Notes under the pieces: model-generated
What the model was told of the DNA's origin: nothing
Database searches by the model: none
The model's input: only the letters and a program-made list of their open reading frames with translations
Translations under genes and position numbers: made by a program
Shown here: piece by piece, positions 5,806-31,773 of the stretch
Layout of the letters: every line of letters starts with the position of its first letter
Position numbering within the stretch: the first letter of the stretch is position 1
DNA from: Promethearchaeia archaeon
Lineage (GTDB): Archaea; Asgardarchaeota; Lokiarchaeia; Sigyniarchaeales; SOKP01
Reading direction: 5' to 3'
DNA: 32,000 nt
Assembly: GCA_046497275.1 (NCBI GenBank)
Contig: JAWOFX010000137.1
Span: 1-32,000, forward strand

Positions 5806-6351
5806 ATGCCAGATTATGATTATACATTCAAGCTTTTACTCTTAGGTGACGCTTCAGTTGGTAAGACATCATTTACTAAGAGATATTGTTACAATATTTT
5901 TAATCCAAGCGAACGTCTCACCATAGGTGTTGATTTTCACGTTAAAACAATCGAAATAGATTATAAAGGCGAACCTAAAAAAATAAAATTGCAGATTTGG
6001 GATATTGGAGGAGAGGAACGTTTTAGGTTCCTTCTCCCAACATATTGTTTGGGAGCGAACGCAGCTTTTCTACTATATGATATAACTCGTCCCTCCACTT
6101 TGGAGAATATTCCTGAATGGACTACGATTGTAAGACAAAAAGGGGGAGCTATTCCAATTATGTTAGTAGGGGCAAAAATCGATTTAGAACCAGACCAGAG
6201 AAAAATTGACCGTGATAATGGGATACAAATTGCTGAACGTAATAAATTAGCTGGTTTTGTGGAAATCTCCTCAAAGACAGGTGTGAATGTTGATGAAGCC
6301 TTCGATCTTTTGGCGGAATTGACTTTAGAGAAAATGGAAAGTAAAACTTAG
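5806..6351 (+). CDS. Rab/Ras-superfamily small GTPase (Asgard eukaryotic-signature type)
   Basis: G1 GDASVGKT, G2 TIGVDF, G3 WDIGG followed by ERFRFL, G4 GAKID, G5 ISSK, then GVNVDEAF. AGGAG Shine-Dalgarno-like site upstream. Confidence 0.93.
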   Translation: MPDYDYTFKLLLLGDASVGKTSFTKRYCYNIFNPSERLTIGVDFHVKTIEIDYKGEPKKIKLQIWDIGGEERFRFLLPTYCLGANAAFLLYDITRPSTLENIPEWTTIVRQKGGAIPIMLVGAKIDLEPDQRKIDRDNGIQIAERNKLAGFVEISSKTGVNVDEAFDLLAELTLEKMESKT

Positions 6352-6356
6352 GTGGT

Positions 6357-7325
6357 ATGATGGGAGAAGAGAAATACTTAGCTCTTAACCAGTTATTTGA
6401 TTCTATTGGGATAATAGAGAAAGGAATAGAGAAAATATACCATTATTTATTATTGAATAAACGAATTGATAATTTAAAAAAGGTATGTAATGAATATAAT
6501 TTAACCCTAAAAAGAGGTTATAAAATTAGTTCTGTTTTATCAGATTTAGAACTTGTTCAAACTTATGATCGCCCTATGAAAATAATTCTCCAAACTCCTG
6601 TAATACCAGTCTGGCAAAAGATTATAAATGACCGAATAGAAGATTTAAAAAGAGTTTTTGATGAGAAAGTTAATTTTTGCGAGAGATCATTAACTGATTT
6701 TATCAAGATATACGATCTAAAACAAGAACAAGTAGAACAAGAACCCGTTGAATTTATTAATTATTCAATCGATAATATTGAGGATTTATATTATCCGTTC
6801 TTAGCTGCTGAAGAATGTAAGATTGCTATGGGTATTAGATATGAAAATACTTTAGTAAGTGCTATTAAGGATAAACCTATGGATCTGATAAAAAAGCAAT
6901 TTCAGCCAAAAATCTTAACGGGAATCGAAAATATCGTAAATAATATTAAAACTATTAAGATCAAAGTTGTGTTTAATCAAGATATAATTGATGTTTTATT
7001 GAATAGCAGAGAATATATGATTTTAACCAGTTTGTTAGAATCTATTAATTTTGAATTCAAGGAGCTACACACTCAAGTCACAGAGGAGGATTTCAGCAAT
7101 TTTAACCTTGTGGATGATGAATTGATACAACCTAGCTTCGATCCTGCAAATAAATTAATGGGGGCATATATTTCGAGAAATAAAAACATATATCAAGTTT
7201 TTGAAGATAAATTTGAAGATTTATTCAATAAAAGTATTCCGATTAATCAATTTTTAGATAAAAGCGAAAGTCTTAAAAAAAAAGTACTTTCTGATATACA
7301 ACGTTTTGTTTTATGTTTATTATAA
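6357..7325 (+). CDS. TrmB-like transcriptional regulator (N-terminal winged HTH, C-terminal effector/PLD-like domain)
   Basis: N-terminus LFDSIGII...EKIYHYLL...LTLKRGYKISSVLSDLELV...P follows the TrmB HTH pattern. C-terminus FNLVDDE...AYISRNKNIYQVFEDKFEDLF resembles the TrmB effector-domain end. Starts 5 bp after the GTPase stop. Confidence 0.65.
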   Translation: MMGEEKYLALNQLFDSIGIIEKGIEKIYHYLLLNKRIDNLKKVCNEYNLTLKRGYKISSVLSDLELVQTYDRPMKIILQTPVIPVWQKIINDRIEDLKRVFDEKVNFCERSLTDFIKIYDLKQEQVEQEPVEFINYSIDNIEDLYYPFLAAEECKIAMGIRYENTLVSAIKDKPMDLIKKQFQPKILTGIENIVNNIKTIKIKVVFNQDIIDVLLNSREYMILTSLLESINFEFKELHTQVTEEDFSNFNLVDDELIQPSFDPANKLMGAYISRNKNIYQVFEDKFEDLFNKSIPINQFLDKSESLKKKVLSDIQRFVLCLL

Positions 7326-19017: not shown

Positions 19018-20700
19018 ATGGAGAATAACGCTAAATTTATATTTGTAACTGGCGGTGTGATGAGTGGTATAGGAAAGGGAGTAGTCACAGCGAGCTTAGG
19101 AAAGATTCTCCAATTTAGGGGATTTAACATCTCAGTTGTTAAGATCGATCCGTATTTAAATGTTGATCCTGGAACATTAAATCCTATCGAGCATGGAGAG
19201 TGTTTTATTACAGAAGAAGTATGGGATTTTGAACCTGTGCCAGATTCCGATGAGCGAGTATATAAAATAAGTGAGATAGATCAAGATTTTGGTACATATG
19301 AAAGGTTTTTAGGAATCACAATTCATCCCTCTAATAATATTACATCTGGACAAATTTACCTCTCAACTATTCTTAGAGAACGAAAAGGCAAATTTTTAGG
19401 AAGAACTGTCCAACTGATTCCTCATGTTACAAAAATGATAAAAGATAGGTTATTCGAAATTGCTGCGAAAGATGATTTAGATGTATTATTAGTAGAATGT
19501 GGGGGAACTGTCGGTGACTTAGAATCAAGCATCTTTTTAGAAAGTTTCCGACAGTTAAGACTTGAATTACCTAAAAATAATACTGCTTTTGTTCACGTAA
19601 CATTAGTTCCTTATTCTAAGGCTGTTGGGCAACAAAAATCAAAACCAACCCAACACTCTGTTAAACAATTACAGAGCGCAGGACTTCAACCCGATATAAT
19701 AATTGGCAGGAGTGAACAACCTCTGGAGGAAGATATAAGAAATAAAATCTCCTTATTTTCTAATATACCTAAAAAAGCAGTGGTTTCTAACCCTGATTTA
19801 GATAATATTTACGAATTACCTTTATTATTTGAAGAACACCAACTAGGAGATTTACTCTGTGAAATTCTTGATTTAAAAGCTAAACTGGTATCCTATAGTG
19901 AAATAACCAATTTCTCTGAATGGAAAAAAACTGTAGAAGTATTTAGAAAAGCTAATAAGACTATAAAAATCGGAATGCCTGGAAAATATTTTAACATAAC
20001 AGATTCTTATATCTCAATTAACGACGCATTAGAACACGCAGCAGCACACCAAGGCTATAAAACAGACCTTAAAATGATTAATATTGATGAAGAAACCGAA
20101 GTTAAAGAACAATTAAAAGAATGTGATGGAATTTTACTAACTCCTGGATTCGGAGAAAGAGCCGTCGAGGGTATGATAGGGAGCGCTCTCTATGCGATGG
20201 AAAATAAAGTTCCATTTTTAGGAATATGTTTTGGCGCGCAATTATTTTTTGTAGCATTTTGTAGAAAATATTTGGGATTAACTGGCGCAAATTCTACGGA
20301 AATAAATCCTAAAACTCCACATCCCGTAGTTGATTTATTAGAAAGCCAGAAAGAAGTGACTGAGAAGGGGGGAACAATGAGATTGGGAGGATTAAAAATC
20401 TTTATCAAAGAGGATACTAAATTATATAATGCGTATCAAAAAGAAGAGGTCGTGGAACGATTTCGGCACAGATATCATATTAATTCAAAATATATTAAAA
20501 AAGAAGGGAAAGAAAACGGCATTAGAATATCAAGTACAGATGAGACAGGTAAAATTATTAATAGTATAGAATTGAGTGATCCAAACCATTGGATGGTAGG
20601 CACTCAGTTCCACCCCGAATTTAAATCTGCTCCGTTTAAACCTTCACCTGTCTATTCTGCATTCATTAAAGAAGCGATAAAATACAGGAATAATAAATGA
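19018..20700 (+). CDS. pyrG: CTP synthase
   Basis: FVTGGVMSGIGKG, KIDPYLNVDPGT, ECGGTVGDLES, KPTQHSV; glutaminase triad intact (GICFG, QFHPEF). Confidence 0.97.
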   Translation: MENNAKFIFVTGGVMSGIGKGVVTASLGKILQFRGFNISVVKIDPYLNVDPGTLNPIEHGECFITEEVWDFEPVPDSDERVYKISEIDQDFGTYERFLGITIHPSNNITSGQIYLSTILRERKGKFLGRTVQLIPHVTKMIKDRLFEIAAKDDLDVLLVECGGTVGDLESSIFLESFRQLRLELPKNNTAFVHVTLVPYSKAVGQQKSKPTQHSVKQLQSAGLQPDIIIGRSEQPLEEDIRNKISLFSNIPKKAVVSNPDLDNIYELPLLFEEHQLGDLLCEILDLKAKLVSYSEITNFSEWKKTVEVFRKANKTIKIGMPGKYFNITDSYISINDALEHAAAHQGYKTDLKMINIDEETEVKEQLKECDGILLTPGFGERAVEGMIGSALYAMENKVPFLGICFGAQLFFVAFCRKYLGLTGANSTEINPKTPHPVVDLLESQKEVTEKGGTMRLGGLKIFIKEDTKLYNAYQKEEVVERFRHRYHINSKYIKKEGKENGIRISSTDETGKIINSIELSDPNHWMVGTQFHPEFKSAPFKPSPVYSAFIKEAIKYRNNK

Positions 20701-21527: not shown

Positions 21528-22661
21528 ATGGAATATAAAGATGAAAGACCTGCTATTTTAATGTTGAAAGATGGACGTTTTTTTGAAGGAATCGGTTTTG
21601 GTGCAACCAAAATTGTCACTGGAGAAATAGTATTTACCACTATAACTGGAGCTGGATATAATGAAACCTTAACAGATCCATCTTATCAAGGGCAAATAGT
21701 TGTGATGACACATCCTTTAGTCGGTAATTATGGAGTACCCCCTTGGGAAAAAGATCAAAACGGATTGATTAAATTTTTTGAGTCTGAATCAATTAAGGTT
21801 GATGGTTTTGTAGTAAATGAATGTTGTAAACAACCACATCATTATGAAAGTATAAAAACTTTAGATGAGTTCTTAAAAGAACAAAATATTCCTGGAATTG
21901 AGTGGATTGATACAAGAGCAATCACTAAAATATTAAGAGAAGAAGGTGTGCAAGTTGGATTGTTAGCGGTATATGATACAGGGGAAATTCCAAATATTGA
22001 ATATTTGAAAGAAATAGTAAAGGAGTCGAAAGACCCAAACCTCCGCCATTTAACAAGCGAAGTATCTACTAAACAAGTTCAGAAATATGTTCCATCCAAT
22101 CCCTCTGGTCGAGTTGTTATTTTAGATCTTGGGGTGAAGTATAGTATCATTCGAAATATGCTTCAACGTAATTTCGAAGTTATTTTAGTTCCATATAATT
22201 ATTCCTACTCCCAAATTATAGAATATGAGCCTGATGGTGTTTTGATTTCAAATGGACCTGGAGATCCAAAGCTTTATACGAATGCTATAAATGTATGCGA
22301 AAAACTTATTGAAAATGAAGTCCCCACTTTTGGAATATGTCTGGGAAATCAAATAATAGGATTGGCTGCTGGAGGAAACTCTTACAAACTTAAATATGGT
22401 CATAGAGGAGGAAATAAAACAGTTATTAATCCAAATAACCAGAAATGTTATATAACTTCTCAAAATCATGGATTTTGTATTCGAGATTTTAAGAAAGGAG
22501 GCTTTATCGAATTTCTTAAAAATATAGATGATAGTTCTAATGAAGGAATAATTCATGAAAATAAGCCGATCTTGGGTGTCCAATTCCATCCAGAGGCATC
22601 GCCGGGACCCCTTGATTCAACATATCTTTTTGATAAATTTGTAAAAATTATGGGGTTTTAA
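21528..22661 (+). CDS. carA: carbamoyl-phosphate synthase small (glutaminase) subunit, copy 1, catalytic residues intact
   Basis: LTDPSY, HPLVGNYG, SNGPGDP, GICLGNQ (Cys271), QNHG, QFHPEASPGP (His354, Glu356). Confidence 0.97.
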   Translation: MEYKDERPAILMLKDGRFFEGIGFGATKIVTGEIVFTTITGAGYNETLTDPSYQGQIVVMTHPLVGNYGVPPWEKDQNGLIKFFESESIKVDGFVVNECCKQPHHYESIKTLDEFLKEQNIPGIEWIDTRAITKILREEGVQVGLLAVYDTGEIPNIEYLKEIVKESKDPNLRHLTSEVSTKQVQKYVPSNPSGRVVILDLGVKYSIIRNMLQRNFEVILVPYNYSYSQIIEYEPDGVLISNGPGDPKLYTNAINVCEKLIENEVPTFGICLGNQIIGLAAGGNSYKLKYGHRGGNKTVINPNNQKCYITSQNHGFCIRDFKKGGFIEFLKNIDDSSNEGIIHENKPILGVQFHPEASPGPLDSTYLFDKFVKIMGF

Positions 22662-22662
22662 C

Positions 22663-25600
22663 ATGCCATTAGATACAACTATTAAGAAAGCACTAATACT
22701 AGGTTCGGGTGGAATTCGTATAGGACAAGCTGGAGAATTTGATTACTCTGGCTCTCAAGTATTGAAAGCACTTAAAGAAGAGGGTTTGGAAACCATTCTC
22801 ATAAATCCAAATATCGCCACAATTCAGACGGATCCGGAACTTTCCGATAAAGTTTATCTTTTGCCTATTAATGTAAAATATGTTGAAGATGTTATAAAGA
22901 AGGAGAGACCAGAGGGGATATTATTAGCGTTTGGAGGACAAACCGCTCTAAATGTAGGCGTTGAGCTTAAAGAACTAGGAATTTTAGAAAAGTATAATGT
23001 TCGTGTATTAGGAACTCCCATAGAAGCCATTCAAAAAACCGAAGACAGAGATTTATTTGTAAAAGCTATGGAAGAGTCTAAAGCGCCAGTCTGCAGAAGT
23101 AAAGCTGTTAGCAGTTATTCTGATGCCCTGAAAGTAGCAAAAGAATTTGGGTTTCCATTAATGATACGGGTTGCATATACTCTCGGAGGAAGGGGATCTG
23201 GAATAGCTAAGAATATGAAAGAATTTGAAAAAATGGCTCGACGGGGAATCGCACAATCTCGTATTAATCAAATCTTAATTGAAGAGAGTGTGTGGGGATG
23301 GAAAGAAGTAGAATATGAGGTTGTAAGGGATTCTGTTGACAATTGTTTTATCAATTGTAATATGGAAAATTTCGATCCCGTAGGTATACATACTGGAGAA
23401 AGTATAGTTGTTGCTCCTTCACAAACTCTCACTAATGAAGAATATCATATGCTCCGTTCTGCGTCAATTCGTATAATTAGAAATTTAGGAATTATAGGAG
23501 AATGTAATATCCAGTATGCTTTAAACCCAAAATCAAAAGAATTTCGAGTGATTGAAGTTAATGCAAGATTATCTCGATCTTCAGCATTAGCCTCTAAAGC
23601 TACAGGTTATCCTTTAGCATATATTGCTGCAAAACTCGCAACTGGATATAATCTCCCCGAATTAAAAAACAAAATTACAGGTATCACAACAGCCTGTTTC
23701 GAACCTGCTTTAGATTATGTTGTATTAAAATTTCCTCGCTGGGATCTCACAAAATTTCAAAGAGTTGATAGACATCTTGGTAGCCAAATGAAAAGTGTGG
23801 GTGAAGTCATGGCTATAGGACGAACTTTTGAGGAAGTTCTTCAAAAGGCAATTAGAATGTTGGATATAGGAATGAAAGGTGTCGTTGCAAATGATTTAGA
23901 ATCTATTGAGGACATTAATGAATTAAAATATAATCTCCAAAACCCAACTGATCTTCGGGTTTTCCGCATAGTTGAAGCCATTAAACGAGGAATCAGTATT
24001 GATGAAATTTATCAAATTTCGAGAGTAGATAAATGGTTTCTATATAAAATTAATAATATTATTGAAATTGAGACTAGTCTTAAGTCATTAAAACTATTAG
24101 AATCAAGTGATAAAGAAAAATGTTATATTCTGAAGCATGCGAAGAGATTTGGCTTTTCAGATGGACAAATAGGAAAGATTTTGGGAGTAGATTCAATAAA
24201 AGTAAGAAATCTACGAAAAAAATATAATATTGAACCATATGTTAAAAGAATTGATACTTTAGCAGCCGAATGGCCAGCCATTACAAATTACTTATACTTA
24301 ACTTATGGTGCTTCAGAACATGATATCAATTTTGAAGAGGAACAAAAGAAAAATTTAAAGAAAATAATCGTTCTTGGAAGTGGAACCTATCGTATCGGTG
24401 CTAGTGTTGAATTCGACTGGGGATCGGTTAATTGTCTTTGGGGATTGAAGAAACAAGGAATTGATCAAGCAATTATCATTAATTACAATCCAGAAACAGT
24501 CTCAACAGATTTTGATATTTCTGATAAACTCTATTTTGAAGAACTTTCTGGTGAGCGTGTTTTAGATATTGCAGAACTAGAGATGGCCGATGGAGTAGTA
24601 GTGTCGGTTGGTGGACAAATTGCTAATAATCTTGCAGCTAAATTTTCAAAATACAGTGAATTTTTCAGGAGAACAGGCATTAATATATTAGGAACACATG
24701 GATCTCGTATAGACATGGCGGAAGACAGAAGCAAGTTTAGCACACTATTGGATCAACTCGATATAAAACAACCTAAATGGAGAGCTTTAACAACCAAAAA
24801 TGAAGCTTTAACGTTTGCAGATGAAGTTGAATATCCTGTTCTTGTACGCCCATCTTATGTCTTGAGTGGTGCTGCTATGCGAGTATGCTATGATGAGAAA
24901 ACTTTAAGAGATACATTAGATCTTGCTGCTTCTGTTTCTAAGGAATATCCAGTAGTAATTTCAAAATTCTTTACAAATGCTCGAGAAGTGGAATGTGATG
25001 GTGTCTGTGATGGAAAAAACGTTTTTATCGGCGCAATTGTAGAACATATTGAAAATGCTGGGATACATTCTGGTGATGCGACTATGAGTATACCCCCTTT
25101 TACTATCCCTCAAAAGGTTATATCAATAATAAAAGACTATACAAAACGAATTGCCTTAGCCTTGAAAATAAAAGGACCATTTAATGTACAGTATTTAGTA
25201 AAAAATGGAGATGTTTTTGTTATTGAATGTAATCTCCGTTCAAGTCGAAGCATGCCTTATGTTTCTAAGACACGAGGTATAAATTTAATGCGTTTAGCTG
25301 CAGAAGTTATCATGGGAAATGAAATCCCTGAAAGATTACTACACTTACCATATGGAAATTATGTATCTATCAAAGCTCCCATGTTTTCCTTTATGCGTTT
25401 AGATAAAGCAGATCCTATATTAGGAGTGGAAATGGCGAGTACTGGAGAAGTTGCTTGTTTTGGCGATGATTTTTCAGATGCTCTCATAAAAGCATTGGAG
25501 GCTACTGATCGGCAAATTCCTATACATGGAGGAAATGTCTTAATCTCTGTTGCGGGGGAGGAATTAAAAAAAAAAGTTATTCCTATAGCAAAAAAATTAA

Positions 25601-25974
25601 AAAAAATGGGGTTTACATTATTTGCGACAGAAGATACGGCTAAAGCTTTGAATAAAAACGAAATATATTCTGTTCGATTATATAAAATCCATGAATATGG
25701 ACAAGAACCTAATATTATTGCTTGTTTACAAAATGGTGCCATTGATTTAGTAATTAATATACCACTTCCTATACCTCAAGAGGAAAAATTCCGTCAAATC
25801 ATTGAAGATGAATACACTATTAGAAGAATGGCAGTAGATTATAACATACCAGTTATAATTAATATTGAATTAGCTGAAGCTTTAGTTAATGCTATAGAAA
25901 AAGTGCGGAGGAGAGATCTTACCATCAAATCTCTAAATGAATATCATAAGACTTTAAAAGAAGTATATTGGTAA
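22663..25974 (+). CDS. carB: carbamoyl-phosphate synthase large subunit, copy 1
   Basis: GQAGEFDYSG, two ATP-grasp modules (GIHTGES...EVNARLSRSS; GIHSGDA...ECNLRSSRS) and a C-terminal MGS-like allosteric domain. Confidence 0.98.
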   Translation: MPLDTTIKKALILGSGGIRIGQAGEFDYSGSQVLKALKEEGLETILINPNIATIQTDPELSDKVYLLPINVKYVEDVIKKERPEGILLAFGGQTALNVGVELKELGILEKYNVRVLGTPIEAIQKTEDRDLFVKAMEESKAPVCRSKAVSSYSDALKVAKEFGFPLMIRVAYTLGGRGSGIAKNMKEFEKMARRGIAQSRINQILIEESVWGWKEVEYEVVRDSVDNCFINCNMENFDPVGIHTGESIVVAPSQTLTNEEYHMLRSASIRIIRNLGIIGECNIQYALNPKSKEFRVIEVNARLSRSSALASKATGYPLAYIAAKLATGYNLPELKNKITGITTACFEPALDYVVLKFPRWDLTKFQRVDRHLGSQMKSVGEVMAIGRTFEEVLQKAIRMLDIGMKGVVANDLESIEDINELKYNLQNPTDLRVFRIVEAIKRGISIDEIYQISRVDKWFLYKINNIIEIETSLKSLKLLESSDKEKCYILKHAKRFGFSDGQIGKILGVDSIKVRNLRKKYNIEPYVKRIDTLAAEWPAITNYLYLTYGASEHDINFEEEQKKNLKKIIVLGSGTYRIGASVEFDWGSVNCLWGLKKQGIDQAIIINYNPETVSTDFDISDKLYFEELSGERVLDIAELEMADGVVVSVGGQIANNLAAKFSKYSEFFRRTGINILGTHGSRIDMAEDRSKFSTLLDQLDIKQPKWRALTTKNEALTFADEVEYPVLVRPSYVLSGAAMRVCYDEKTLRDTLDLAASVSKEYPVVISKFFTNAREVECDGVCDGKNVFIGAIVEHIENAGIHSGDATMSIPPFTIPQKVISIIKDYTKRIALALKIKGPFNVQYLVKNGDVFVIECNLRSSRSMPYVSKTRGINLMRLAAEVIMGNEIPERLLHLPYGNYVSIKAPMFSFMRLDKADPILGVEMASTGEVACFGDDFSDALIKALEATDRQIPIHGGNVLISVAGEELKKKVIPIAKKLKKMGFTLFATEDTAKALNKNEIYSVRLYKIHEYGQEPNIIACLQNGAIDLVINIPLPIPQEEKFRQIIEDEYTIRRMAVDYNIPVIINIELAEALVNAIEKVRRRDLTIKSLNEYHKTLKEVYW

Positions 25975-26025: not shown

Positions 26026-27117
26026 TTAATAACCCTCTTCTAAATCTACAATATTTATATAATCCTTCTTCCCCTCAACCATCCTAGCAATATTTTCAAC
26101 AAGCTCATTCCATCTCAACAAGTCATTAAAAGGAGAATATCCTCTATGAGGGGAGAATATTATATTTTTTAAATCATGAAATGGATAATGATAAGGATAT
26201 TTGTTGTTATTTTTGTCTGCGATGGGATTTTTTTCATACCAAACATCGACACATGCTCCCAAAATTAATTTATTTTTTAGTGCAAAATAGAGATCCTTTT
26301 CATTTATGATTTCACCTCTCGAAACATTCACTATTATTCCTTTATCTCCTAATGAGGTTAATTCTTTTTTAGTAATCATATTTATTGTTAATTTAGTCAC
26401 TGGAATTGCGATTATAAGTATTTCACTTTCTTTTAAAAAGTCTTCAATATTTGGGTATGAAAACTTTTTTACAGGAGTTGGTAATGATTTACTTTTATGA
26501 GACCAATCTTTTCGAAAAACGGAAAATTCTATATCAAACCCAGCAAGAAAATTGTGAACTTTTTGGTTTATAGCTCCATAACCAAGCAGTCCTATGTTTT
26601 TGAATCTTAGAGGGATTGAAGCAGCTTCTTTATCTCCAGTTCTCCACTTCCCTTCTTTCATCCAGAGATGATGTGGAATAATTTTACTCATAAATGTAAG
26701 AAGAAGCGAAACGGCATGTTGAGCGACAAAATATGAATTTCCATGACCATTAGCAAGCAAGACATTCCGATTTTGATTAATTTTTTTAAAATTATCGATA
26801 ATATGATTGACTCCAGTTCCGGGTACTATAAAAAGTTTTAATCTTTTAGCGTTTTCAAGTAATTCCATACTAGGACGCCAACCTACAATGATATCCGCTT
26901 CTTTGGAAATCTTTAATATCTCCTCTTCCGTAAAATTATCTGGAAAAATTAGATTTAATCTCTTGAATCTTTTTAAATTATTTGAAATGTATGATTCGAC
27001 TTCCTTTGGTAATTTAGAAAGAAATAAAACATTAATTTCAAAATTAGGATTTGATAATTGATTTTTATGAAGACTCATGATATATTCCAACCTATGAAAC
27101 TTTAAATAAATATTCAT
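26026..27117 (-). CDS. D-isomer-specific 2-hydroxyacid dehydrogenase; true start probably the ATG at 27078
   Basis: PGTGVNHI, VAQHAV, GLLGYG, VNVSRG (Arg), DVWYE (Glu), SPHRG (His). AGGTTGG precedes the ATG at 27078. Confidence 0.9.
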   Translation of the reverse strand: MNIYLKFHRLEYIMSLHKNQLSNPNFEINVLFLSKLPKEVESYISNNLKRFKRLNLIFPDNFTEEEILKISKEADIIVGWRPSMELLENAKRLKLFIVPGTGVNHIIDNFKKINQNRNVLLANGHGNSYFVAQHAVSLLLTFMSKIIPHHLWMKEGKWRTGDKEAASIPLRFKNIGLLGYGAINQKVHNFLAGFDIEFSVFRKDWSHKSKSLPTPVKKFSYPNIEDFLKESEILIIAIPVTKLTINMITKKELTSLGDKGIIVNVSRGEIINEKDLYFALKNKLILGACVDVWYEKNPIADKNNNKYPYHYPFHDLKNIIFSPHRGYSPFNDLLRWNELVENIARMVEGKKDYINIVDLEEGY

Positions 27118-27325: not shown

Positions 27326-28459
27326 ATGATTTATAAGACAGAAAATCCCGCTATTTTAATGTTGGAAGACGGTTCGTATTATGAAGGTATAGGTATAGGA
27401 GCTATGAAAAAGATTATTGGTGAATTGACTTTTTCCACTATTCCAGGTTCTGGTTATATTGAATCTTTAACAGATTCTGCCTATATGGATGAGATATTAC
27501 TATTTACTTATCCATCGATCGGAAATTATGGTGTTCCACAAAAAGAAAGAGACAATTATGGCATTCTTAAACATTTTGAATCTGAATCCATAAAGGTCAA
27601 AGGAGTGGTTATGAATGAATATTGTAAAAATCCAAGTCATTATGAAAGTATAAGGACCTTAGAAGAGTGGCTTTTAGAAGAAAATATTCCCGCCATCCAA
27701 TGGATTGACACAAGACTCCTTACTCAAAAACTGGTTGAGGAAACACAAGCTTTTGCATTATTACAAGTCTTAGATCACCAAAAACAACCTGATTTAAAGA
27801 AATTAAGATTAGAACTACAAAATTTTTCAGCTCAAGCAGATAAATTCCCTGTGTCTAAGGTGTCAACTGACAATATTCAAAAATACTCACCTACGGATCC
27901 AATTGGGAAAGTTGTGATATTAGATCTAGGAACTAAAAATAATATAATAAGAACTCTAATATCAAAAGAACTTGAAGTAATAAAAGTCCCATATTTATAC
28001 AATTTTGATAAGATTATGGAATTAAATCCAGATGGAGTTATTCTTCCGAATGGACCAGGGGATCCTAAAATATTAAATGCTCCAATAAACTTAACTAGAG
28101 AATTAATAGACCATAATATTCCAACAATGGGTATTGGATTAGGTAATATGATTGTGGGACTAGCTGCGGATATGGAGGTATATAAAATGTCAGCAGACCA
28201 TAGAGGGGGAAGAACAACTGTTGAATCATCGACAAATCATTGCTATATTACTTTTCAAAATCATGGATATTGTCTTAACTACAAAAAGTCCAAAAATTTT
28301 AATGAATTATATTTTGATAAAGATGATAAATCGAATGAGGGGCTGATTCATAAATCTAAACCTATTTTCTCCGTTGCTTTTAACCCAGAAGGAGCTCCTG
28401 GAGCACTCGATATCAAGGAAAAAACATTCAATCAATTTATTAATTTTATGGAGGTTTAG
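27326..28459 (+). CDS. carA: carbamoyl-phosphate synthase small subunit, copy 2; glutaminase catalytic residues substituted
   Basis: Aligns end to end with copy 1 and is also 377 aa, but reads GIGLGNM (Gly271 for Cys), AFNPEG (Asn353 for His) and LTDSAY. Confidence 0.95.
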   Translation: MIYKTENPAILMLEDGSYYEGIGIGAMKKIIGELTFSTIPGSGYIESLTDSAYMDEILLFTYPSIGNYGVPQKERDNYGILKHFESESIKVKGVVMNEYCKNPSHYESIRTLEEWLLEENIPAIQWIDTRLLTQKLVEETQAFALLQVLDHQKQPDLKKLRLELQNFSAQADKFPVSKVSTDNIQKYSPTDPIGKVVILDLGTKNNIIRTLISKELEVIKVPYLYNFDKIMELNPDGVILPNGPGDPKILNAPINLTRELIDHNIPTMGIGLGNMIVGLAADMEVYKMSADHRGGRTTVESSTNHCYITFQNHGYCLNYKKSKNFNELYFDKDDKSNEGLIHKSKPIFSVAFNPEGAPGALDIKEKTFNQFINFMEV

Positions 28460-28461
28460 AA

Positions 28462-31400
28462 ATGCCTTTAGATAGATCTTTAAAGAAAATCTTAATTTTA
28501 GGTTCTGGAGCGGTGAGGATTGGGCAAGCTGGAGAATTTGATTATAGTGGAAGCCAAGTCCTTAAAGCTCTAAATGAAGAGGATATAGAAACGATTTTAG
28601 TTAATCCCAATATTGCTACAATTCAAACAGATCCTCAAATGAGCTCAAAAGTATATTTACTGCCCATAAATATTAAATATGTTACAGAAATTATTAAAAA
28701 AGAAAGACCAGACGGCATATGTCTTTCATTTGGAGGGCAAACTGGTCTAAATGTTGGAGTAGAACTTTATGAGGCAAGGATTCTTGATAAATATGGTGTT
28801 AGAGTGTTAGGGACCCCTATAGAAGCTATTCAAGATACGGAAGATCGCGATCTTTTTGTAAAAGCAATGAGTCGCGCAAATTGTCCGGTATGCAGAAATA
28901 GGGCTGTAAATTCATATGCTGAAGCAAAAAAGGTCGCGGAAGAGTTTGGTTTTCCTTTAATGTTAAGAGTTGCATATGTTTTAGGAGGTAAAGGATCGGG
29001 AATTATTCACGATTGGGATCAATTTGAAAGGATGGCAAAAAGAGGACTAGCGCAATCAAGAATTAATCAAATCTTAATTGAAGAAAGTGTGTGGGGGTGG
29101 AAAGAAATCGAATTTGAAATTCTAAGAGATGCAGAAGACAATTGTTTTATAAATTGCAGTATGGAAAATGTAGATCCCTGTGGAATTCATACGGGAGACT
29201 CGATTGTGGTCGCTCCTGCTCAAACCTTAACTGATGAAGAACTGCAATTACTGCGAAGCGCTTCGATCAGAGCAACTAAAGAAGTAGGTGTCTGTGGAGA
29301 GTGTAATATTCAATGGGCATTGGATCCTTTTTCAAAAAAATTTAGAGCGATTGAAATAAATGCCCGGTTATCAAGATCGTCTGCTCTCGCATCGAAAGCA
29401 ACTGGATATCCTCTGGCTTATATAGCAGCTAAGATTGCTATAGGATATACACTACCTGAATTAAAAAATCAAATAACTCTCAAAACTACAGCAAATTTCG
29501 AACCTGCTACAGATTATATGGTTATGAAATATCCACGATGGGATTTAACTAAATTTGAGAAAGTTGACAGAAGAATTGGCCCTCAAATGAAAGGGGTCGG
29601 GGAATGCATGAGTATTGGGAGAGGTTTTGAAGAGGTTTGTCAAAAGGCGCTTAGAATGCTTGATATCGGTTTAAAAGGCTTTGTAGCAAATGATTTAGAT
29701 CCTATTGAAGATATTAATGAATTAAAGTATGAATTAAGAAATCCTACAGATCTTAGATTTTTAAGAATTGCCGATGCGATGAAAAGAGGGATATCTATCG
29801 ATGAAATTTATGATAGATCTCGTATTGATAAATGGTTTTTATATAAATTAAAGAACATAATCGAAATTGAAAATGAACTAAAAAACTTGGATTTTCTGGA
29901 ATCTTCTAATGAACAAAAGGAATATTATCTAACAAAAGCAAAAAGATATGGTTTTTCTGACGGTCAGATTGCTAAGATAGTTGGGGTAAACACTCCAATG
30001 ATACGCAGGTTAAGGAAAAAATATAATATAATTCCATATGTAAAACAAATTGATACCTTAGCAGGGCAATGCATCCCAAAACGCCATTATCTTTATCTAA
30101 CCTATTGGGGAAATAAGCACGATATCGATTTTGAAGAAGAAGAAAAAGAAGAAATAAAAAAGGTAATCGTTTTAGGAAGTGGAACTTACCGAATTGGGGC
30201 AAGTGTAGAATTTGACTGGGGATCTGTTAACTGCCTTTGGGGATTACAGAATCTGGGAGTAGATAAAGCAATTATTATTAATTATAATCCTGAAACAGTA
30301 AGTACTGATTATGATATTTCTGATCGCTTATATTTTGAAGAAATTTCTGGAGAGAGAGTATTAGATATTTGTGAATTTGAAAGTCCCTATGGCATTGTGC
30401 TTAATGCAGGTGGACAAATTGCTCAAAATCTTGCAGCAAAATTTGCTAAATATTCAGAATTCTTCCGAAAAACAGGAATAAATATTTTAGGTACCCATGG
30501 CTCTCGCATTGATATGGCAGAAGATAGAGCAAAATTTAGTGCCTTACTAGATCATTTAAATATAAAACAACCGAAATGGAGAGCTCTAACTATTAAAAGC
30601 GAAGCTCTAAAATTTGCAGATGAGGTGGGTTATCCCGTGTTGGTAAGACCTTCTTATGTTCTCAGTGGAGCAGCCATGCGAGTATCTTATGATGAGAAGA
30701 CATTAAGAGATACATTAGATTTAGCGGCTTCTGTCTCTCAAGAATATCCCGTCGTAATGACAAAATTTTTCACAAATTCTCGAGAAGTAGAATGTGATGG
30801 TGTTTGTGATGGAAAAAATGTTTTAATAGGAGCAATAGTAGAACATATCGAAAATGCTGGTGTTCATAGCGGAGATGCTACGATGACAATTCCACCTCAG
30901 ACAGTTTCTAAAGAAATAAGAAAGCAAATTGAAGAATATACTAGAAAAATTGCTCTTGCCCTCAAAATTATAGGTCCATTCAATGTGCAATTCTTAGTAA
31001 AAAATGGAGATGTTTTTGTAATTGAATGTAATCTTCGTTCAAGTCGAAGCATGCCTTATGTTTCAAAAACAAAAGGAATTAATCTGATGAAGCTGGCTGC
31101 TGAGGTGATTATGGGAAATAGTATACCTAAACGATTATTAAATTTACCATGTGGTAATTTTGTGGCTGTTAAAGCTCCTATGTTCTCATTTATGCGTTTA
31201 GATAAAGCTGATCCTATTCTTGGCGTGGAAATGGCGAGTACAGGGGAGGTTGCTGTTTTTGGAGAGGATCTACCTGATGCTCTACTAAAAGCATTGGAAG
31301 CAGCCGAACAGAGTATTCCTATTCATGGAGGAAATGTTCTAATCTCAGTTGCAGGAGAAGAATTGAAAAGAAAAATGATTCCTATCGCAAAAAAGTTAAA

Positions 31401-31773
31401 AAAAATGGGATTTACGTTGTTTGCTACTGAAGATACAGCTGAAGCACTTAGAAATAACGAAATATATTCTGTTCGATTATATAAAGTCCATGAATATGGA
31501 AAAGAACCCAACATTGTTGCATGTCTTCAGAATGGTGCCATTGATATGGTAATTAATATACCACTTCCTACTTCTCAAGAAGAGAAATTTCGTCAGATAA
31601 TTGAAGATGATTATACCATCCGAAGAATGGCGATTGATTATAATATACCAGTCATAATTAATTTACAGCTCGCCGAGGCAATTGTGGATGCCATAGAAAA
31701 AGTGAGAACAAAGGAACTCTCTCTTAAATCTTTAAATGAATATCATCAATCCCTAGATGAGGTATATTGGTAA
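28462..31773 (+). CDS. carB: carbamoyl-phosphate synthase large subunit, copy 2
   Basis: Same length (1103 aa) and domain order as copy 1, with both ATP-grasp motif sets present. Confidence 0.98.
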   Translation: MPLDRSLKKILILGSGAVRIGQAGEFDYSGSQVLKALNEEDIETILVNPNIATIQTDPQMSSKVYLLPINIKYVTEIIKKERPDGICLSFGGQTGLNVGVELYEARILDKYGVRVLGTPIEAIQDTEDRDLFVKAMSRANCPVCRNRAVNSYAEAKKVAEEFGFPLMLRVAYVLGGKGSGIIHDWDQFERMAKRGLAQSRINQILIEESVWGWKEIEFEILRDAEDNCFINCSMENVDPCGIHTGDSIVVAPAQTLTDEELQLLRSASIRATKEVGVCGECNIQWALDPFSKKFRAIEINARLSRSSALASKATGYPLAYIAAKIAIGYTLPELKNQITLKTTANFEPATDYMVMKYPRWDLTKFEKVDRRIGPQMKGVGECMSIGRGFEEVCQKALRMLDIGLKGFVANDLDPIEDINELKYELRNPTDLRFLRIADAMKRGISIDEIYDRSRIDKWFLYKLKNIIEIENELKNLDFLESSNEQKEYYLTKAKRYGFSDGQIAKIVGVNTPMIRRLRKKYNIIPYVKQIDTLAGQCIPKRHYLYLTYWGNKHDIDFEEEEKEEIKKVIVLGSGTYRIGASVEFDWGSVNCLWGLQNLGVDKAIIINYNPETVSTDYDISDRLYFEEISGERVLDICEFESPYGIVLNAGGQIAQNLAAKFAKYSEFFRKTGINILGTHGSRIDMAEDRAKFSALLDHLNIKQPKWRALTIKSEALKFADEVGYPVLVRPSYVLSGAAMRVSYDEKTLRDTLDLAASVSQEYPVVMTKFFTNSREVECDGVCDGKNVLIGAIVEHIENAGVHSGDATMTIPPQTVSKEIRKQIEEYTRKIALALKIIGPFNVQFLVKNGDVFVIECNLRSSRSMPYVSKTKGINLMKLAAEVIMGNSIPKRLLNLPCGNFVAVKAPMFSFMRLDKADPILGVEMASTGEVAVFGEDLPDALLKALEAAEQSIPIHGGNVLISVAGEELKRKMIPIAKKLKKMGFTLFATEDTAEALRNNEIYSVRLYKVHEYGKEPNIVACLQNGAIDMVINIPLPTSQEEKFRQIIEDDYTIRRMAIDYNIPVIINLQLAEAIVDAIEKVRTKELSLKSLNEYHQSLDEVYW

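Follow-up and report, generated by a model that had tools for sequence, protein, structure and literature searches.

Two carbamoyl phosphate synthetase (CPS) operons lie close together on contig JAWOFX010000137.1 of a Promethearchaeia archaeon (assembly GCA_046497275.1), and the second of them, carA2-carB2, encodes a full-length small subunit whose glutaminase site has lost its catalytic residues. The window analysed here is the whole stretch from position 1 to 32,000 on the forward strand of this contig. The genome is AT-rich (about 30% GC), and the nearest homologues carry the labels Lokiarchaeota or Promethearchaeota, which agrees with an earlier reading of the bare sequence (the original prediction) that had called the DNA Asgard-like. 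The locus raises the question of why a glutaminase subunit should be retained after the loss of its chemistry, and where the second CPS obtains its nitrogen. Sequence comparisons make it likely that CarA2B2 is a second, ammonia-dependent CPS in which CarA2 persists as a pseudo-glutaminase scaffold. The argument turns on the following features.

21528–22661, + strand: carA1, canonical glutamine-hydrolysing small subunit of 377 amino acids (motifs GICLGNQ and FHPE)
22663–25974, + strand: carB1, canonical CPS large subunit of 1103 amino acids
27326–28459, + strand: carA2, intact paralogue of the CPS small subunit, 377 amino acids, with a dead class-I glutaminase site
28136–28138, + strand: GGA in carA2, Gly271, replacing the nucleophile Cys (E. 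coli Cys269)
28148–28150, + strand: ATG in carA2, Met275, replacing the glutamine-binding Gln (E. coli Gln273)
28208–28255, + strand: tunnel-wall segment remodelled in the A2 clade (clade-specific sites, mapped onto E. coli and CPS1)
28382–28384, + strand: AAC in carA2, Asn353, replacing the triad His (E. coli His353)
28462–31773, + strand: carB2, intact CPS large subunit of 1103 amino acids, co-duplicated partner of carA2

Active site and conservation of CarA2

CarA1 and CarA2 are equally long (377 amino acids) and 50% identical; CarB1 and CarB2, both of 1103 amino acids, share 77% identity. Neither carA frame contains an internal stop, and carA2 ends in TAG (28457–28459), followed by AA and the ATG of carB2 at 28462, which confirms the intact frame, the unchanged length, and the 2-nucleotide gap before carB2 that had been reported originally. 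The original statements on codons and residues also hold in a codon-by-codon check: the nucleophile codon 271, TGT in carA1 (22338–22340, Cys), is GGA in carA2; CAT, the codon of the triad His in carA1 (22587–22589), is AAC; Gln is Met275, the motif GICLGNQ reading GIGLGNM; and DPSY is DSAY in the region of Ser47 (E. coli numbering). Only the numbering of the triad His needs amending, because the Asn is indeed residue 353 of CarA2 but the His is residue 354 of CarA1, shifted by an indel of one residue.

In an alignment with E. coli CarA, Gly271 corresponds to Cys269, Met275 to Gln273, Asn353 to His353, and Glu355 to Glu355; in place of the Cys-His-Glu triad of a glutamine-hydrolysing CarA (EC 6.3.5.5), CarA2 has Gly271, Asn353, and Glu355. 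Both Cys269 and His353 are essential for glutamine hydrolysis by E. coli CPS (PMC6245113). With Gly where the thioester-forming Cys should be and Asn where the general-base His should be, CarA2 is not expected to hydrolyse glutamine.

Outside these positions, CarA2 has the makeup of its family, with an N-terminal CPSase small-chain domain (PF00988, CPSase_sm_chain, 120 bits) followed by a class-I GATase fold (PF00117, GATase, 103 bits). It retains the triad Glu355 and, as first described, the LTD, DLGxK, QNHG, and PG motifs; the Pfam match to Peptidase_C26 that is present in CarA1 is lost. An AF2 (AlphaFold2) model built from the clade alignment has a pLDDT of 88.3 and a pTM of 0.90, and Foldseek aligns it with E. 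coli CarA (1a9x_B) at a TM-score of 0.90 and with the N-terminal moiety of human CPS1 at 0.88.

The search for further CarA lacking the Cys and His, and the estimate of selection among orthologues, both of which had been proposed as checks, gave clear results. A search over 5.8 billion proteins yielded about 105 CarA2-type clusters, which together with the sequences from genome loci make 109 distinct proteins that are 52–98% identical to the query. All of them have Gly at the nucleophile position (109/109) and Asn at the His position (109/109), and their frames, which stem from many independent assemblies, are intact in every case (109/109); canonical Asgard CarA have Cys and His in 31 of 31 sequences. 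The residues that bind glutamine show no such constraint. The position of E. coli Gln273, occupied by Gln in every canonical sequence, is filled in the A2 clade by M (34), N (28), V (16), I (13), F (7), and others including L, S, and T; that of Ser47 is T, A, S, or V; and Gly313 and other positions of the glutamine site (E. coli numbering) are also free to vary. Canonical Asgard CarA have 97 invariant columns, of which 52 are still conserved in CarA2.

The ratio of nonsynonymous to synonymous substitutions (dN/dS; Nei-Gojobori) among carA2 orthologues is 0.12–0.16 at a dS of 0.5–0.8, far below 1; carB2 has 0.04–0.16, and carA1 about 0.04, although the last value was obtained at a dS of 3.2, near saturation. 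The end branches of CarA2 (0.2–0.5) are longer than those of CarA1 (0.1–0.17), equivalent to an approximately twofold faster evolution. The gap between carA2 and carB2, 2 nucleotides in the window, ranges from −1 to 6 nucleotides in 11 other genomes; carA2 is always translationally coupled to its own carB2. The low dN/dS, the intact frames, and the fixed Gly and Asn therefore indicate that the fold of CarA2 and its partnership are under selection, and that its glutaminase chemistry is not.

Ammonia tunnel, large subunit, and origin of the second operon

Further changes in CarA2 concern the path that ammonia takes in canonical enzymes. Taking as derived those states for which the outgroups match CarA1, the fixed changes in CarA2 comprise V35T, L64S, K134Q, R137V, D246N, G291E, K296R, S310F, N331D, and A/I332K, with the query itself retaining Asp at 246; most members of the clade also have P360A, and there is a one-residue insertion at position 364. 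In the tunnel-wall segment, the A2 clade has a fixed deletion of one residue after Gly295 (between Gly293 and Asn294 in E. coli numbering), Arg296 in place of Lys, and Phe310 where E. coli has Ala309, presumably a tunnel-lining residue. CarA2 Gly295 aligns with E. coli Gly293, the position at which human CPS1 has Gln318, which blocks the ancestral tunnel (PMC4655335). The path proposed for ammonia in CPS1 starts between Glu82 and His142 and follows the subunit interface as far as the conserved gate (PMC4655335).

The old tunnel from the glutaminase site to the gate is thus probably obstructed in CarA2. Of the two roles offered by the original prediction, a scaffold or an ammonia conduit, a scaffold with a closed old tunnel fits better than a conduit through the dead site, because CarA2 has the bulky Phe310 as a fixed residue and a fixed deletion beside the Gly293 site, at which Gln318 blocks the tunnel of CPS1.

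The large subunit CarB2 has the complete Pfam architecture of a CarB, with two ATP-grasp halves, an oligomerisation domain, and an MGS-like allosteric domain. It evolves as slowly as CarB1; of 405 columns without variation among 17 canonical Asgard CarB, it retains 361, and the ammonia-gate residues Cys232, Ala251, and Ala314 (E. coli numbering) are likewise present. Its clade-specific sites are unevenly distributed: 39 of 46 fall within residues 1–552 (binomial p = 9e-7) and none (0/46) in the allosteric domain. Residues 1–400 and 401–552 form the carboxyphosphate and oligomerisation domains, which in E. coli contact the small subunit and take up the ammonia (PMC6245113). At 17 positions, a residue that is invariant in all canonical Asgard CarB is replaced in at least 11 of 12 CarB2 (A95G, T173V, V220I, N258D, Y261L, C345N, S378G, V382C, K622R, V647L, S648N, and a rewritten segment 535–542). 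Tyr261 of E. coli, which is Leu in CarB2, presumably has a role in the tunnel. Gene conversion as the cause of the N-terminal bias was rejected, because the B2 clade is recovered in separate trees of residues 1–552 (support 100) and 553–1103 (support 98). The pattern suggests that the A1B1 and A2B2 isozymes have their allosteric control in common and diverge in how nitrogen is supplied, and that the matching changes in the N-terminal part of CarA2 and the interface domains of CarB2 may insulate the two pairs from each other.

Both subunits have the same history. The A2 clade (support 100/100, stem length 0.39) and the B2 clade (support 100) arise at the same node inside the Loki family of the window (f1), after the split of the G147 lineage; this congruence indicates that the whole carAB operon was duplicated once. 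Across 400 genomes of the phylum, A2-type CarA is confined to this family, where it is present in about 18 of 135 genomes across eight genera (13 of them verified by residues); other Asgard families have a single canonical CarA. The order carA1-carB1-carA2-carB2 is retained in eight genomes, with a spacer between carB1 and carA2 of 119–400 nucleotides in six tandem genomes, 1351 nucleotides in the window, and 1657 nucleotides in G166.

In four genomes of a single genus (G183, 99% complete; G178, 97%; G226, 93%; G229, 92%), the only carA is of the A2 type and the single carB belongs to the B2 clade; aspartate and ornithine transcarbamoylase are retained in each of them. Their gene content makes A2B2 the apparent sole CPS of these species. 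It also rules out a dependence of CarB2 on CarA1, a pairing that would have spoken against the original prediction, because these near-complete genomes lack A1B1. Directly upstream of carA2, and on the same strand, the A2B2-only genomes share a conserved open reading frame (ORF) of 345–362 amino acids without a Pfam match:

L031, 4713–5750, − strand: ORF upstream of carA2
L032, 958–2028, + strand: ORF upstream of carA2
L033, 4718–5776, − strand: ORF upstream of carA2
L034, 4709–5797, − strand: ORF upstream of carA2

Proposed ammonia use, alternative readings, and neighbouring genes

If CarA2B2 is an ammonia-dependent CPS, the role left to CarA2 would be structural or allosteric, in partnership with the two domains of CarB2 for carboxyphosphate and oligomerisation, and ammonia would bypass the old tunnel on its way to the carboxyphosphate site, a possibility already put forward for CPS1 and for tunnel mutants of E. 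coli CPS. The changes fixed in the ammonia-receiving half of CarB2 may adapt it to this new route and prevent mixing of A2B2 with A1B1. The benefit would lie in the direct use of NH3, which saves the ATP that glutamine synthetase spends for each carbamoyl phosphate, in an energy-limited but ammonia-rich organism. There are precedents for such an entry of ammonia: E. coli CPS with a blocked or perforated ammonia tunnel has normal activity on external ammonia, and human CPS1, which has Ser294, uses ammonia only (PMC4655335). Every comparative test that was run favours ammonia dependence as originally predicted, with the scaffold more likely than the conduit.

Several points weigh against this interpretation. 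The E. coli enzyme has a poor affinity for ammonia, and an efficient use of NH3 by A2B2 would need adaptations. All A2B2-only genomes also encode a carbamate kinase beside the ornithine transcarbamoylase, and several 99% complete genomes of family f1 (G168, G179, G200, and others) have no CarA match at E ≤ 1e-30; some close relatives may lack a CPS and rely on carbamate kinase, ornithine transcarbamoylase, or salvage. Carbamoyl phosphate could therefore come from elsewhere, and the status of A2B2 as sole CPS is no proof that it is essential. That Gly and Asn never vary is more than a simple loss of function would lead one to expect, and hints at a positive role. Finally, the linkage of amt, glnK, and nadE to the operon in three genomes is only genus-level synteny. 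This candidate linkage to ammonium transport (nadE, amt, and glnK 3′ of carB2 in L003 and L004; nadE on the window contig) was rejected on that ground; in 11 other genomes, of the A2B2-only, tandem, and A1B1-only types, tblastn did not find these genes within about 12 kb downstream (2.2 kb in G148, where the contig ends).

The genome of the window (G000) has three transcarbamoylases, located on contigs C13 (1858–3759), C83 (9944–10867), and C79 (6024–7001): an ornithine transcarbamoylase adjoining a carbamate kinase (a catabolic-type pair), an aspartate transcarbamoylase, and a protein resembling N-acetylornithine carbamoyltransferase.

Two alternatives to ammonia dependence are unlikely but deserve consideration. 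One is that CarA2B2 has shifted to a related but different job, such as the catabolic, ATP-yielding direction, the direct use of carbamate, or another nucleophile. The replacement of 17 canonically invariant CarB positions, including Tyr261Leu, Asn258Asp, Cys345Asn, and the 535–542 segment, would be compatible with a changed reaction, as would the strict invariance of Gly and Asn, which simple loss of function leaves unexplained; the organisms already have clusters of carbamate kinase and catabolic-type ornithine transcarbamoylase. However, CarB2 retains 361 of 405 columns, both ATP-grasp halves, the ammonia gate, and the whole allosteric domain; A2B2 is the sole CPS in four genomes that have kept aspartate transcarbamoylase; and dead carA genes of bacteria are found inside pyrimidine biosynthesis operons (see below).

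It is about equally improbable that CarA2 is a regulatory pseudo-enzyme, which would serve as a metabolite sensor or form hetero-oligomers of A2B2 and A1B1 that tune the canonical enzyme. The invariant Gly and Asn and the retention of the pocket residues G269, G273, N312, H313, and P354 would suit a sensor, and mixed oligomers are conceivable because both operons are adjacent in most genomes and E. coli CPS oligomerises through residues 401–552 of its large subunit (PMC6245113). By contrast, a conserved glutamine sensor is made less likely by the free variation of the main contacts to glutamine (E. coli Gln273 and Ser47) within the clade; A1B1 is absent from four genomes that have A2B2; and the changes in the interface domains of A2 and B2 look like insulation rather than mixing.

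That CarA2 still delivers amide nitrogen through a non-canonical nucleophile or mechanism is very unlikely. In favour of this view are the intact GATase fold, the retained Glu355 and QNH motif, and the conserved Cys at C100, C306, and C316, but CarA1 shares Cys100 and also has Cys opposite Cys306 and Cys316 of the query. None of the residues that became fixed in the A2 clade is plausible as an elbow nucleophile, nucleophile and general base are both gone, and the glycine at the elbow has no side chain.

That carA2 is a decaying duplicate or an assembly artefact has next to no probability and is refuted by the orthologue, conservation, and dN/dS data: CarA2 does evolve about twice as fast as CarA1, with a dN/dS of 0.12 versus 0.04, but this is well below 1, 109 of 109 frames are intact, the substitutions are invariant, carA2 is the only carA kept in four genomes, and the same Gly and Asn recur in a JGI metagenome contig of independent origin (P0005/L044, 98% identical) and in 107 other sequences, which rules out an assembly error.

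Among the neighbouring genes, the following two flank or separate the operons.

19018–20700, + strand: pyrG (CTP synthase), upstream of carA1B1, synteny conserved in relatives
26026–27117, − strand: gene of the D-2-hydroxyacid dehydrogenase family (Pfam and NCBIfam), between both carAB operons

The dehydrogenase gene is also present in the closest metagenomic relative (L045) but missing from the spacer between carB1 and carA2 (119–400 nucleotides) in six of seven other tandem genomes; it looks like a recent insertion outside the CPS system. A gene for a Gln-type NAD synthase lies on the same contig just past the end of the window, 3′ of carB2. Elsewhere in the window, positions 5806–6351 encode a small GTPase of the Ras/Roc family (145 bits to PF00071), a type of protein typical of Asgard archaea, and the next ORF (6357–7325, 322 amino acids) has no Pfam match.

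Known systems, dead CarA forms elsewhere, and implications

An ammonia-dependent CPS with a dead glutaminase belongs to a mechanism class already known from CPS1 of vertebrate mitochondria (5DOT/5DOU). In both CPS1 and CarA2, a dead class-I glutaminase domain is kept as a structural part and the nucleophile Cys is replaced; CPS1 takes its ammonia from solution. CarA2 thus has the trait of CPS I-type enzymes (EC 6.3.4.16), a glutaminase-like domain that is present but dead, as is the domain with Ser294 in CPS1. Both also have an altered tunnel at the position of E. coli Gly293 (Gln318 in CPS1; the adjacent deletion and Phe310 in CarA2), and the Cys/Ala/Ala gate is kept in CarB2. The two systems differ in that CarA2 has Gly for Cys and has lost the His, whereas CPS1 has Ser and keeps the His; that carA2 and carB2 are separate genes, whereas CPS1 is fused; and that the allosteric domain shows no CarB2-specific change, so nothing indicates a dependence on N-acetylglutamate.

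The parallel with CPS1 that was drawn originally holds as convergence and not as inheritance, given the duplication inside one Loki family. In the tree, the A2 clade is far from the CPS1 representatives P0151 and P0153, and neither common descent with CPS1/CPS3 nor a fused polypeptide was found. CarA2 does score higher against human CPS1 (221 bits) than against E. coli (155 bits), as do residues 1–560 of CarB2 (745 bits versus 707 bits for E. coli CPS), but this bias is not specific to CarA2, because the canonical CarA1 shows it as well (293 versus 225 bits). The likeness to the eukaryotic enzyme is a property of the whole Asgard CPS lineage.

Two carAB-type operons per genome, created by duplication, are also known from Bacillus and Lactobacillus, which have an arginine-specific CarAB and a pyrimidine-specific PyrAA/AB. 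Those two enzymes both depend on glutamine and are set apart by their allosteric control and regulation; the Loki pairs, by contrast, show no fixed difference in the allosteric domain and have diverged on the nitrogen-input side. Engineered mutants of E. coli CPS are substituted at the same two catalytic positions (C269S in 1c30; Asn at 353 in 1a9x), and G359F (1m6v) is a tunnel-blocking mutant; variants with a blocked tunnel are active on external ammonia (PMC4655335). Unlike these laboratory mutants, the state of CarA2 is natural, ancient, and conserved, and is accompanied by additional fixed changes, about 20 of them in CarA and 17 in CarB. Archaeal carbamoyl phosphate is also made from ammonia, or by other means that spare glutamine, by the carbamate-kinase-type "CPS" of Pyrococcus and in the arginine-synthetase route of Thermococcus (PMC13260591), but these are enzymes of unrelated fold, from the amino-acid kinase family or an arginine pathway, whereas A2B2 is a genuine two-subunit ATP-grasp CPS. 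The NAD synthetases, some ammonia-only and some glutamine-dependent, are an amidotransferase family in which glutamine and free ammonia have repeatedly replaced each other as nitrogen source during evolution (PMC3376133); NadE loses its glutaminase domain entirely, whereas CPS keeps the dead subunit.

Dead forms of CarA are not restricted to the A2 clade. A profile of the clade was searched against 1.84 billion representatives, and about 27 of the best 150 matches have a non-canonical triad; the profile favours sequences like itself, so this is no unbiased census. In a tree computed without the two catalytic columns, the label "dead" requires at least 12 changes across well-supported branches. 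These matches include vertebrate-type CPS1 (GISTGN), a rotifer (Gly/Asn), Helarchaeota (Gly/Asn), the cultured bacterium Desulfonispora thiosulfatigenes (Gly/His), and metagenomic lineages with Gly/Asn, Ser/Asn, Asn/Asn, Gly/Tyr, Gly/Ile, and other combinations.

In Desulfonispora thiosulfatigenes, both CarA copies carry Gly in place of the nucleophile. Copy 1 (GIGVGHQ and FHPE) is located in the gene order pyrB-pyrC-carA-carB-pyrK-pyrD-pyrF-pyrE (L055, 4821–14277), and copy 2 (L082) has GVGLGHQ and YHPN instead of the canonical FHPE. The pyrB of the former operon is called as two ORFs (153 and 111 amino acids), which suggests a frameshift or an assembly problem; the ORF upstream of copy 2 resembles, by eye, an ArgD-type aminotransferase. 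A metagenomic CarA with Asn/Asn sits in another pyr operon, and the dead carA/carB pair of Helarchaeota stands alone.

Membership of the Helarchaeota pair in the A2B2 lineage was rejected, because its CarB falls outside the Loki clade. This CarB shares the states 173V, 350T, 535G, and 541R with CarB2, and the position of E. coli Tyr261 is Leu in CarB2, Phe in Helarchaeota, Phe in CPS1, and His in Desulfonispora. Convergent changes of CarB in independent systems with a dead CarA are suggestive only, the sites having been picked post hoc.

The low-scoring CarA of families f4–f7, which belong to the same class, had been suspected of being dead as well, but all are canonical except one. In G123 (contig C424, family f5), the second copy of CarA (L062, 1095–2342, + strand) reads GISTGNE and FHPE, with Ser in place of Cys. 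Its ISTGN motif is identical to that of vertebrate CPS1, and it represents an independent Asgard case; the other copy of this genome (L063, cut by the contig end) is canonical.

It is somewhat more likely than not that the loss of glutaminase activity with retention of the small subunit is a recurrent and so far unrecognised prokaryotic route to an ammonia-dependent CPS. It would span Asgard archaea of the Loki and Hel types, Firmicutes such as Desulfonispora, several uncultured lineages, and a rotifer, with at least 12 origins in the neighbourhood of CarA2, and would proceed nearly always by a change of Cys to Gly and often with a change of His to Asn.

Full-text literature searches found no description of a natural prokaryotic CarA that lacks the Cys. 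The original impression that the case was undescribed in Asgard archaea agrees with this result, although the phenomenon extends beyond them. A survey of amidotransferases in 600 genomes from 2012 scored no carAB as lacking the glutaminase (Table 1, PMC3376133), which is correct at the level of genes but hides dead subunits. The NCBI records of proteins from the A2 clade, Helarchaeota, and Desulfonispora are named "glutamine-hydrolyzing"; CarA2 acquires such a name because its score against NCBIfam TIGR01368 (320.7) just exceeds the cut-off (307.35). This is a systematic annotation error, in which automatic pipelines assign to CarA2 a function that the dead site cannot perform, and if the loss is recurrent, the database names would be wrong for dead CarA proteins in general.

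CPS is a textbook example of a channelling enzyme, and its ammonia-only form, CPS1, has so far been treated as a speciality of vertebrates. The co-occurrence of A1B1 and A2B2 in one genome provides matched enzyme pairs for studying roles of the small subunit beyond glutamine hydrolysis, the entry of external ammonia, and the changes in the large subunit that raise the affinity for ammonia. The independent recurrences make a clean case of convergent pseudo-enzyme evolution. For the Asgard archaea, the finding bears on their nitrogen and energy economy, with one ATP saved per carbamoyl phosphate; if the recurrent loss is real, a dead CarA would mark organisms for which ammonia is abundant and ATP is scarce.

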